A stretch of DNA of 64,000 nucleotides from Acidobacteriota bacterium (GTDB lineage Bacteria; Acidobacteriota; Thermoanaerobaculia; Multivoradales; JAHZIX01), in NCBI GenBank assembly GCA_034211275.1, contig JAXHTF010000001.1, forward strand, positions 120,590 through 184,589, read 5' to 3'. Position numbers and translations under genes: made by a program. Of the stretch, positions 2,447 to 30,626 are shown piece after piece (position 1 is the stretch's first letter; each line of letters opens with the position of its first letter). The notes under the pieces are model-generated. The model saw only the letters and a list, made by a program, of their open reading frames with translations. It was not told the origin of the DNA and did no database searches.

Positions 2447-5400
2447 ATGAGCCGCAAGAAGCACATCGAATCCTTCTACCCCCTATCCCCGACCCAGCAG
2501 GGAATGCTCTTCCATTCCCTGGCGACGCCGGGCTCGGGGATGTACGTGGGCCAGATCAGCTTCCAGCTCCAGGGGGCGCTGGACGTCGCCGCCCTGCGCC
2601 GGGCCTGGCACCAGGTCACCGAGCGCCACGGCGTGCTGCGCACCTCCTTCCGCTGGCAGGAGCTCAAGGAACCGGTGCAGGTGGTGGACCGCCGCCCCCA
2701 GCCCACCTTCATCGAGATCGACCTGCGGCGCCTCGGCCCCGAGGACCAGCGGCGGTGCCGCTCCCAGGTCTTCCGGGAGGATCAGCGCCGCGGCTTCGAG
2801 CTCACCCGTCCGCCGCTGGTGCGCATGACCCTGCTGCGCTGGTCCGACGGCGACAGCGAGCTGCTGTGGACCCGCCATCACCTGGTGGTGGACGGCTGGT
2901 CGGTGTCGCTGCTTTTCCAGGAGCTGCTGCGGCGCTACCAGGCACTGGTGGACGGCTCCTCCCTGCCTCTCGATCCCGCCCCCCGCTTCCGCGACTACAT
3001 CGCCTGGCTGCGGCGCCAGGACCAGGAGGCGGCGGAGGCCACCTGGCGCCAGGAGCTGGCGGGTCTCGGCGAGCCGGCGGTCTTCGACTACGGCACGCCG
3101 GAGGATCCCGCCGCCACCGGCGAAGCACGCTGGGGGGATCTGGCGCACGAGGTGCCATGGTCCACCACCGCCGCCCTGGGCGTCCTGGGCCGCGGCTGCG
3201 GCGTCACCCTGGCGACCCTGGTGCAAGGCGTCTGGGCGCTGCTCCTGGGCCGCTACCAGGACCGCGGCGACGTGCTCTTCGGCACCGTGGTGGCGGGCCG
3301 CCCACTGGAGCTGCCGGGAGCCCAGGCCACCGTCGGTCTGTTCATCAACACCCAGCCTCTTCGCGCCCGGCTGCCCCGGCAGCAGAGCTTCCTCGACTGG
3401 ATCCAGGGACTGCAGCGCCATCTTGCGGAGCTGCGCCACACCGAGCATCTGGCACTGCATCAGATCCAGGGCTGGAGCTCCATGCCCCGCGGGCAGGCGA
3501 TGTTCGAGACCCTGCTGGTGTACGAGAACTATCCCGTGGATCCGCTGCTGCTGGGCGAGTCCCAGTCGGTGACCCGAGAGGAGGCGACCCAGGACCTGGC
3601 CGGCCGCGGCCTTGCCGCCGGCGGCCTGCGCATCGTCCGCCACCACGCCCGGGAGCGCACCAACTACCCTCTGACGGTGGTGCTGCGCCAGGGCAAGACC
3701 CTGCCCATGAGCATCATGTACGACCGCACGCGCATGTCGGCGGCGGATGTCCAGCGCCTGCTCGGGCATTTCCACCGCCTACTGGAGGAGGTGGGGGCGG
3801 ATCCCCGACGGTCGCTGGACGCTCTGCCCTGGATGTCGGCAGCGGAACGGCATCAGCTGCTGGTGGCCTGGGACGGCCCGGTGGAGCCACCGCCGGAGGA
3901 GACAACCCTCGACGGCCTGGTTGCGGCCCAGGCCCGGCGCACCCCCGACGCGCCGGCGGTGGTCCAGGGCGAGCAGCGGCTCACCTACCGCCAGCTGATG
4001 GCCGGAGCCCGGCGCGTCGCCGCGGCCTTGATCGCCGCCGGAGTGGCCCCCGGTGACCGCGTGGGCCTGGGCTTGGAGCGGACGCCGCAGCTGCTGGTGG
4101 CGCTCCTCGGCGTGCTGCGCGCCGGCGCCGCCTACGTGCCCCTGGACCCGGCCTACCCGGCGGCGCGGCTGGCACTGATGATGGACGACGCCGGCCTCGA
4201 GCTGGTGCTGGCGGAGGCCGGCTCGGAGCTCGGCGCCCGGGCGCCGGAGGGCTGCCGCGTCCTCAGCCTCGAAGAGCTACTGGCCTCGGGAGATTCGGCT
4301 GGCGAGGACGCCGAAGAGGCATCGCTCTCCCTGCCCCAGTCGCCGGCCTACACCATCTACACCTCGGGCTCCACCGGCAAGCCCAAAGGCGTGATGGTGC
4401 CCCACGGCGCGGTGGTCAACTTCCTCACTTCCATGGCCCGAAAGCCGGGGCTCGAAGCCGACGACGTGCTGGTGGCGGTGACCAGCCTGTCCTTCGACAT
4501 TTCTGTATTGGAGCTCTTCTTGCCGCTGACGGTGGGGGCGAGGGTGGTCCTCGCCGACCGCCAGCAGGCCTCCGAAGGCCGGCGGCTGCGCCAGCTGCTG
4601 GAGGGCCAACTGCTGGAGGAGAGCGGCGCCACCGTGATGCAGGCGACCCCCGCCACCTGGCGGCTGCTCACTGCCAGCGGCTTCCGCGCCCGGCCACCTT
4701 TCCGCCAGCTGTGCGGCGGCGAAGCCCTGGGCCGGGAGCTGGCCCAGCAGCTACGCGCCAATGGCGCCGAGCTGTGGAACCTCTACGGCCCCACGGAAAC
4801 CACCATCTGGTCCAGCGTCGCCGCCGTCGATGCCGGACCACGGGATACCGGCCCGGTGCATCTCGGGCGCCCCATCGCCAACACCCAGCTGCGGGTCCTC
4901 GACCACCGGCTGCGGCTGGTACCCCTGGGCGCCCCGGGGGAGCTGGCCATCGGCGGCGCCGGAGTCACCCAAGGCTATTTGCACCGCCCCGCCCTCACCG
5001 CCCAACGATTCGTTCCCGACCCCTACGCCGCGGTCCCCGGCGCCCGGCTTTACCGCACCGGCGACCAGGTGCGCCAGCGCGCCGAGGGCATTTTGGACTA
5101 CCTGGGCCGCATGGACTTCCAGGTCAAAGTGCGCGGTCACCGCATCGAGCTGGGGGAGGTGGAAGCCGTGCTGGAAGCGCTGCCGGAGGTGGCGGCGGCG
5201 GTGGCGGTGGTGCGCCGGGACAGCAGCGGCGAAGGCCGGCTGATGGCCTACGTGGTGCCCGAAGAGAGCCACGGAGAAGATCCCTCTCTCACCGTGGACG
5301 AGCTGCGGCGGCGGGCCGGCGAGGCGCTGCCGGCGGTGATGGTGCCGGCGGTGGTGATGCTCCTGGACGCTCTGCCCCTGACCCCCAACGGCAAAGTGGA

Positions 5401-30626: not shown

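Follow-up and report, generated by a model that had tools for sequence, protein, structure and literature searches.

Release of the finished chain by a terminal condensation (C) domain is known from several bacterial systems, e.g., CroK-C2 of crocacin, the amine-capturing domains of the VibH type, and those of the rhabdopeptide systems, in which the C domain stands last, retains an intact HHxxxDG motif, and has no thioesterase (TE) or reductase (R) domain in cis. MshC and BshC are class I aminoacyl-tRNA synthetase (aaRS)-like ligases of mycothiol and bacillithiol synthesis. The sulfotransferase (ST) domains of CurM (curacin; acyl carrier protein-ST-TE, ACP-ST-TE) and of the OLS type are placed directly behind a carrier domain, and in CurM a TE comes next and the arrangement is terminal. 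In MtaG and MelG (myxothiazol and melithiazol), a luciferase-like monooxygenase (MOx) is inserted between motifs A4 and A5 of a glycine-specific adenylation (A) domain; there the module stands last, with a TE behind it, and breaks the glycine down to an amide. Such MOx domains (e.g., in myxothiazol) hydroxylate glycine at the alpha position, after which the product collapses to a terminal amide (PMC9396620). The MOX-bearing glycine A domains share the specificity code DILQLGMIWK, and all MOX modules in the data set of a 2025 survey are located in glycine domains (PMC12283262). The locus discussed here is located in a 64,000-nucleotide stretch (the window) of contig JAXHTF010000001.1 of an uncultured Acidobacteriota bacterium and consists of three large genes of a hybrid nonribosomal peptide synthetase (NRPS) and polyketide synthase (PKS), a convergent gene of an undescribed family, and two transporter genes. 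The best explanation, to which a probability of about 0.6 can be given, is that of a six-module glycine/malonyl line whose release by the terminal C domain is coupled to an aaRS/BshC-like enzyme, with export by permeases of the ADOP and SyrD types. This is the best reading because the terminal C domain belongs to its own clade, which co-occurs with the aaRS-like gene, also in small loci that show no TE within 10 kb. The features are as follows:

2447-13741, plus strand: gene 1 (3764 aa), C(DCL-type)-A(Gly)-T-KS-AT(malonyl)-X(apparently a dead KR-like region)-T-C-A(Gly)-T, closed by an acidic tail for docking
13822-23745, plus strand: gene 2 (3307 aa), C-A(Gly)-T-ST-C-A(Gly; MOx and FkbM methyltransferase inserted)-T, preceded by a basic docking helix at the N-terminus
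23742-30626, plus strand: gene 3 (2294 aa), KS-AT(malonyl)-psiKR/KR-DH-T-C(terminal), 67% identical to its homologue in locus L003
29259-30620, plus strand: terminal C domain (Pfam), last domain of the open reading frame (ORF), HHLITDG at residue 1981
30643-32028, minus strand: gene of an undescribed family for a 461-aa class-I-aaRS/BshC-like enzyme; it converges on gene 3, from which 16 bp separate it
32103-33911, plus strand: ABC exporter of the SyrD (cyclic-peptide) family with fused transmembrane and nucleotide-binding domains (TIGR01194, 482 bits against a cutoff of 286), syntenic in L003
1-1546, plus strand: 3' part of an ADOP duplicated MacB/FtsX permease (Pfam MacB_PCD and FtsX; TIGR03434 positions 304-797 of 803), cut by the window start

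The three synthetase genes have a G+C content at third codon positions (GC3) of 0.89-0.91, as in real genes of this 72% GC genome. Genes 2 and 3 overlap in an ATGA at 23742-23745, with GGAGGGA just before it. Pfam gives C-A-T-KS-AT-X-T-C-A-T for gene 1, C-A-T-ST-C-A(MOx,FkbM-MT)-T for gene 2, and KS-AT-KR-DH-T-C for gene 3 (T, carrier; KS, ketosynthase; AT, acyltransferase; KR, ketoreductase; DH, dehydratase; MT, methyltransferase). The HHxxxDG motif is intact in all five C domains, both KS domains have the Cys-His-His residues, and both AT domains carry GHSLG and HAFH, the malonyl type. As docking elements, the product of gene 1 carries an acidic tail at its C-terminus, and that of gene 2 a 45-residue basic helix ahead of its C domain. 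A preliminary description, made by reading the stretch without database searches, had given three co-directional genes with these coordinates, the ATGA coupling, the same domain strings, and docking suggested by these two elements, and in all of this it is confirmed. It had also counted five A domains; by motif count, genes 1 and 2 contain four in total. Their specificity codes, the prediction of which had been suggested there, were obtained by alignment to a segment of GrsA-PheA, and the control segment gave the expected DAWTIAAIC. In order, the codes read DILQLGLIW, DILQLGLVW, DILQLGLIW, and DILQLGMVW, which is the glycine signature in four of four. Since all four A domains carry the glycine code, the predicted order of units is Gly-C2-Gly-Gly-Gly-C2, i.e., four glycines and two acetate units. 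From their sequence, genes 1-3 are read as a genuine, uncharacterised six-module cis-AT hybrid NRPS-PKS.

The closest relative is locus L003, on a 16.5-kb contig (JAGQSE010000245.1) of the metagenome-assembled genome (MAG) of Acidobacteria bacterium HKST-UBA06, which is itself uncharacterised. Its gene order matches that of the window: gene 2 (71% identity), gene 3 (67%), the 461-aa gene on the opposite strand (73%), and the ABC exporter. In contrast to the window, L003 belongs to a distinct species-level genome and its contig is cut within gene 2, which leaves gene 1 and the ST outside its visible part. A scan of genome contigs for relatives returned two loci only, and exact-protein look-ups with gene 3 and with the truncated permease gave no match. 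In a literature search, no characterised cluster was found that combines ST, MOx, and FkbM domains. This agrees with the earlier judgement that the assembly line is uncharacterised; the accompanying statement that the combination is unmatched is valid for characterised clusters, but C-A(MOx,FkbM)-T and T-ST-C units recur widely in uncharacterised synthetases. Bosamycin was considered as a precedent and rejected, as its oxygenase is a P450. Orphan NRPS/PKS clusters are common in uncultured Acidobacteriota, and the cluster by itself is of moderate interest. Taken as a whole, it represents a known kind of system, of which it is an orphan member, and it combines several sub-architectures that are unusual but recur.

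Gene 3 ends 11 residues past the Pfam match of its terminal C domain, and no acceptor A-T follows in cis. Pfam applied to all GC3-supported ORFs, together with a local TE hidden Markov model (HMM), detected no TE or R domain in the window. Compared with PDB sequences, the terminal C domain matches the LCL/hybrid type. When 24 C domains of the window and related loci are placed in a neighbour-joining tree, the terminal C domains of the window, L003, L007, L011, L012, L015, and L024, all belonging to the C-A-T-C/PKS type, form one clade apart from all internal C domains of these loci, and the terminal C domains of the A-T-C type (L006, L021, and L022) branch separately from it. The domain shares with CroK-C2, VibH, and the rhabdopeptide type its last position, its intact motif, and the lack of a TE or R in cis, whereas it differs from them in that its clade is associated with both a class-I-aaRS-like gene and an ADOP permease. 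The preliminary description had already placed the C domain last and had noted the lack of a TE or R in the window, which holds. Its proposal of release by this domain is still the best reading and gains from the terminal clade, in which the phylogenetic typing proposed there places the domain, but is weakened by a TE just outside the window (see below), and the partner enzyme had been missed. The module upstream of this C domain contains a full KR, with structural and catalytic halves, ahead of the DH (as judged by alignment to EryKR1 and DH structures), and the DH keeps the HxxxGxxxxP and Asp motifs. It can also be observed that the KR (26229-27767) precedes the DH (27810-28733), while the usual cis-AT order is DH before KR; the L003 homologue keeps the domain order of gene 3, including KR ahead of DH.

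The partner gene extends the locus beyond 2447-30626, the range previously given, which had left out this conserved gene. The 461-aa protein is 100% identical to hypothetical protein SX243_00405 of an Acidobacteriota MAG and has about 55 homologues, all annotated as hypothetical. It has no match in Pfam (no tRNA-synthetase family), NCBIfam, or PDB sequences, even with a profile of 48 family sequences, and a Foldseek search of its model against the PDB returned nothing. A confident AlphaFold model displays a class I aaRS/BshC-like fold (HUP Rossmann). In the family, H34-x-G36-N37 is invariant and located in the loop between strand 29-34 and helix 40-49, where HIGH is placed. It is only a guess that TYNKFG, in which Y416, N417, and K418 are nearly invariant, is the counterpart of KMSKS. 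The median isoelectric point of the family is 6.6. In comparison with MshC, BshC, and class I LysRS, no sequence similarity is detected even by the family profile, and the partner of the 461-aa protein is a terminal C domain of an NRPS. A role as a self-resistance copy of an aaRS was rejected because the protein has no sequence similarity to any aaRS.

The genomic contexts of the family were mapped from precomputed Pfam tables and a local HMM scan. In most related loci whose flanks can be read, the immediate neighbour of the aaRS-like gene is a synthetase with a C domain at its end; this holds for the window, L003, L006, L007, L011, L012, L015, L020, L022, and L024. In L013 the aaRS-like gene is followed by an A-(T)-C gene, and on the short L018 contig by a gene whose first domain is an A domain. 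The window, L007, L011, L012, L015, L016, and L024 also have an adjacent ADOP permease, 812-817 aa in length. The small loci L007 and L012 contain C-A(Ser)-T-C, the aaRS-like gene, and ADOP, with no TE or further synthetase gene within 10 kb, and there the terminal C domain and the aaRS-like partner look like a self-sufficient ending. Both loci (L007 2933-13858, L012 4797-13774) begin with a 98-aa ORF, a possible carrier protein without a Pfam match, followed by TubC_N-C-A(Ser)-T-C, the aaRS-like gene, and ADOP; in L007, an acyl-AMP ligase is located between the 98-aa ORF and the NRPS. In L011 and L024, extra and apparently independent NRPS genes are present beside the cassette. One member of the family, in L009 (7441-12852), has as neighbours a 72-aa ORF, an Aminotran_5 gene (with a second one further downstream), and an ADI-family enzyme; because it is located without any NRPS, the family may have a wider role. 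A literature search found no description of an aaRS-like partner of terminal C domains. One specific form of the partnership, that the family is dedicated to the terminal-C clade and activates an amino acid, as the adenylate or even on tRNA, which the C domain takes as acceptor, is put forward tentatively and is held to be rather doubtful. If true, it would constitute a new mode of assembly-line termination joining aaRS-type chemistry to thiotemplate synthesis, common to this 28-kb line and to many small FAAL-C-A(Ser)-T-C loci of soil bacteria (FAAL, fatty acyl-AMP ligase). The recurring cassette of terminal C domain, aaRS-like gene, and ADOP is a testable candidate for chain ending in one class of bacterial lines without a TE.

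The second subject of interest is gene 2, with three domains inserted into or between its modules:

17308-17943, plus strand: embedded CurM-type sulfotransferase (Pfam Sulfotransfer_3, E 4e-27)
20530-21414, plus strand: luciferase-like monooxygenase (Pfam Bac_luciferase, residues 2237-2531), within the fourth A domain, between motifs A4 and A5
22459-23040, plus strand: FkbM-family methyltransferase (Pfam Methyltransf_21, residues 2880-3073), in the C-terminal subdomain of the fourth A domain

The embedded ST is 41-43% identical to the CurM ST and keeps every residue that is invariant among six aligned relatives, including RMT.G. It belongs to the same family as the CurM and OLS-type domains and, like them, directly follows a carrier domain. 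However, what comes next is a C domain (of the ordinary LCL type) rather than a TE, the position is mid-line, and the carrier is predicted to be loaded with glycine and to present no beta-hydroxyl; the arrangement is thus T-ST-C behind a Gly-coded A domain and not ACP-ST-TE with a beta-hydroxyacyl thioester as its substrate. Among metagenomic NRPSs, the T-ST-C unit is found again at about 8700-11860 in L001 and at about 9000-11551 and about 19949-21551 in L002, and one of them ends T-ST-C-TE. The A domains preceding these units are Ser-coded (DVWPFSLVD in L002; DVWHFSLVD in L001, the latter after manual repair of a frameshift). The placement of T-ST-C after Ser modules suggests O-sulfonation of carrier-bound serine, possibly as a route to dehydroalanine or O-sulfoserine, and no description of such serine O-sulfonation was found in a literature search. 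For the ST of the window, serine O-sulfonation followed by elimination to dehydroalanine was rejected because the preceding A domain is Gly-coded; it is still plausible for L001 and L002. That T-ST-C is located behind Ser modules elsewhere and behind glycine here points to an undescribed carrier-bound sulfonation chemistry within NRPSs.

In the fourth A domain, A4 is found at residue 2150 and A5 at residue 2648, with the MOx between them as in MtaG and MelG, and the FkbM-MT is flanked by the two halves of AMP-binding_C. The code of this domain, DILQLGMVW, is nearly identical to the published MOX-Gly code, with one conservative difference. In contrast to the terminal modules of MtaG and MelG, the module of gene 2 is internal, includes the FkbM-MT, and leads into a PKS module. 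When the MOx-MT part of gene 2 is compared with other proteins, about 95 of the 120 best matches combine Bac_luciferase with FkbM in a single stand-alone C-A-T protein of about 1800 aa. Such proteins, at 42-51% identity, are found in Acidobacteria, Nostoc, Corallococcus, Streptomyces, Kitasatospora, Herpetosiphonaceae, Gemmatimonadota, and Bacteroidota, and no characterised example of a C-A(MOx,FkbM-MT)-T protein was found. Because the MOx module is internal and includes an enzyme from a family of O-methyltransferases, capture of the hemiaminal as alpha-methoxyglycine is the simplest interpretation. The wide distribution of internal MOx and FkbM-MT glycine modules across phyla predicts this N,O-acetal to be a common, overlooked building block.

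Two regions of gene 1 bear on how the line starts and on its first ketide:

2447-3856, plus strand: N-terminal C domain, DCL-type (PDB matches, C1 motif), HHLVVDG
8444-10036, plus strand: X region (about 530 aa, from AT to T), probably a psiKR with an inactive KR (sequence layout by eye)

The first C domain opens gene 1, with no upstream T domain in cis, and had been proposed to be a starter C domain that N-acylates the first residue. Its C1 motif, YPLSPTQQGMLFH, is of the DCL type. The N-terminus reads MSRKKHIESFYPLSPTQQGMLFH, in which the DCL-type C1 motif comes after a short basic leader, while the C domain of gene 2 has an LCL-type motif. Among PDB structures, McyB-C1 scores 316 bits, and SrfA-C, TycB1, and the C domains that follow the E domain in BacC and in PvdL score 231-284 bits, against 72 bits for the LCL domain TycC6 and 31-34 bits for the solved starter C domains (CDA-C1, 4jn3, 33.6 bits; RzmA-Cs, 7c1h/7c1k, 31-33 bits). 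The C domains of McyB-C1, BacC, PvdL, SrfA-C, and TycB1 accept D-configured donors. Because the domain carries the DCL-type motif and resembles DCL structures, far from the solved starter C domains, lipo-initiation is not supported; judged by motif and structural matches, the domain is DCL-type and not a lipo-initiation starter. The typing of the two outer C domains thus contradicts the preliminary description for the first one, in contrast to the last. In the C-domain tree, the first C domain is a lone outlier on a long branch, with 26-31% pairwise identity to all others, and a metagenome scan with it returned no relatives.

The X region has no match in Pfam, NCBIfam, or PDB sequences and no detectable similarity to the KR of gene 3. 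Its single-sequence AlphaFold2 model is poor (pLDDT 41), yet beta-alpha-beta repeats are visible in it. Read by eye, the region displays the layout of psiKR and KR, with TGAEDPAL in place of the GxGxxG nucleotide loop and with the Ser and Tyr positions lost, and because these cofactor and catalytic motifs are lost it is read as a dead KR. A tandem pentapeptide repeat, GTVSS three times, is located within it at about 9590-9640. ARAGORN reports a tRNA-Arg(gcg) at 9925-9992 on the minus strand, inside the coding sequence of gene 1, which is probably a false positive (Rfam gives no match).

Putting these elements together, the following order of events can be proposed. A donor other than the classical lipo-initiation substrate would be passed to the DCL-type first C domain. 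Since cofactor and catalytic motifs are missing from the KR-like X region, the first ketide would remain an unreduced beta-ketone. The fourth glycine would be alpha-hydroxylated, as by MtaG-type MOx domains, and the hydroxyl would then be O-methylated to a stable N,O-acetal that does not collapse to an amide. The last module, in gene 3, would yield an alpha,beta-enoyl thioester, and the terminal C domain would off-load the chain onto a nucleophile. By analogy to the MshC and BshC ligases, the aaRS-like enzyme most likely adenylates an amino acid or another carboxylate. Its role would be either to provide the terminal C domain with an acceptor or to carry out a further ligation on the product after release, and export would be by the ADOP and SyrD-type transporters. 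The module content is read from the genes themselves; the chemistry, and likewise the pairing of terminal C domain and aaRS-like enzyme, is inferred.

Several observations weigh against this reading. The likeness of the 461-aa protein to class I aaRSs appears in the predicted fold only, without a sequence-level link. The aaRS-like gene of the window, like that of L003, converges on the synthetase genes instead of being co-transcribed with them; in L017 and L021, the nearest synthetase ending in a C domain is 4-6 kb away, and in L009, L019, and L023 (the last two being short contigs) there is no synthetase in the visible flanks. No T-E protein that could provide the donor for the DCL-type first C domain is encoded in the window, and it was by eye that the X region was called a psiKR and a probably dead KR. 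Ahead of the ST stands a glycine module, which presents no hydroxyl group, and the Ser-coded A domains that precede the T-ST-C units of L001 and L002 are at odds with its Gly-coded position here. Finally, the neighbourhood does not end at the window start. L010, a 5.9-kb Logan contig that carries an exact match to a 279-aa gene of the window (see below), reaches 3.4 kb beyond it, and allows the full ADOP permease to be read (812 aa, duplicated MacB_PCD-FtsX). Its positions 4845-5900, about 2.4-3.4 kb upstream of window position 1, contain the 3' end of an NRPS gene with PP-binding and Thioesterase domains, i.e., a peptidyl carrier protein and a TE (PCP-TE). The preliminary description had stated that a TE gene just outside the window would weaken the inference of terminal-C release, and this one lies about 2.4 kb upstream of the window start. 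The gene lies on the strand of genes 1-3 and overlaps the ADOP start by 4 nt; its visible part is 351 aa, and the TE is of the NRPS type I kind, like those of AB3403 and EntF. Because an NRPS gene ending in PCP-TE is located directly upstream and translationally coupled to ADOP, genes 1-3 may belong to a larger system.

The alternative that follows from this is a larger, non-colinear line of which genes 1-3 are the front or middle, the terminal C domain being half of a split module that feeds an upstream A-T protein, with release by the PCP-TE seen on L010. The position and direction of that gene fit this proposal, as does the recurrence of ADOP in the cassette, a link between the upstream operon and the locus; the DCL-type first C domain also implies a partner protein that is not seen. 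However, the terminal C domain clusters with those of L007 and L012, where no TE or further synthetase gene lies within 10 kb, the start of the upstream gene is outside view, and L011 and L024 demonstrate that apparently independent NRPS genes often lie beside the cassette. We consider the larger line unlikely. The closed three-gene lipopeptide line, in which a starter C domain N-acylates the first glycine and the terminal C domain alone releases the chain by hydrolysis, amidation, or cyclisation, is improbable. It is consistent with an N-terminal C domain that has no upstream T in cis, with an intact terminal C domain in a window without a TE, and with a FAAL gene 12 kb downstream; the geometry of a gamma-amino-enoyl thioester would also suit a five-ring lactam. 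As a possible model for such release, JamQ-type C domains have reportedly been proposed to act by lactamisation to an N-acyl-5-methoxy-pyrrolinone. What argues against it is the DCL-type character of the first C domain, the fact that the FAAL, the only one in the window, is part of a type III PKS operon that stands apart on the opposite strand, and the conserved aaRS-like partner of the terminal-C clade, which it leaves unexplained. The MOx module allows one further alternative, namely off-loading by cleavage: the hemiaminal made at the fourth glycine would collapse, the upstream part would leave as a carboxamide, and gene 3 with its terminal C domain would handle a glyoxylyl remnant or idle. 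All MOX domains described so far are located in Gly A domains and give terminal amides, and the fourth A code is nearly identical to theirs. Yet the module is internal and includes an FkbM-MT, an arrangement that is found in about 95 of the 120 best-matching protein clusters and fits capture as a methyl ether, and gene 3, whose translation is coupled to that of gene 2, is intact and 67% conserved in L003, which makes cleavage very improbable. Terminal-C release with the help of the aaRS-like enzyme is thus the reading preferred here.

The flanks of the locus had been described as containing a stand-alone sulfotransferase, a MacB-like permease, and a SyrD-like exporter. The two transporters are borne out, the permease as the ADOP protein. 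The sulfotransferase is a plausible call, but it is not the plus-strand ORF and has no direct family match:

1548-2387, minus strand: 279-aa divergent sulfotransferase-like gene with a GRSGT P-loop, divergent from gene 1

GC3 is 0.85 for this gene on the minus strand compared with 0.71 for the plus-strand ORF. The protein has no direct match in Pfam or NCBIfam and no BLAST similarity to the embedded ST. Among its 708 homologues, P0414 (33 bits), P0310, and P0297, which are single-domain proteins, reach the Sulfotransfer_1 cutoff over the N-terminal half, and hhalign of the family with a CurM-type ST profile aligns the P-loops (E 0.0019, probability 14%). The identity of the 279-aa protein as a stand-alone sulfotransferase is thus plausible, through its homologues. 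No MbtH-like motif was found in the window.

Further downstream, at 42002-47509 on the minus strand, the operon that includes the FAAL encodes an FAD monooxygenase, the fatty acyl-AMP ligase (623 aa), an ICMT-family methyltransferase, a type III PKS (chalcone-synthase/DpgA-like), and a 127-aa ORF, and it looks like an alkylresorcinol or alkylpyrone-type cluster. The adjoining segment 40001-42000 has a GC content of 0.56, compared with about 0.70 elsewhere, and no Rfam or tRNA match; the ORFs 39902-40567 and 41110-41991 have no NCBIfam match. At 58012-63356 on the minus strand, gyrA and gyrB adjoin each other, with ferrochelatase and fructose-6-phosphate aldolase genes nearby, and this neighbourhood is an ordinary chromosomal context and not a plasmid or island.

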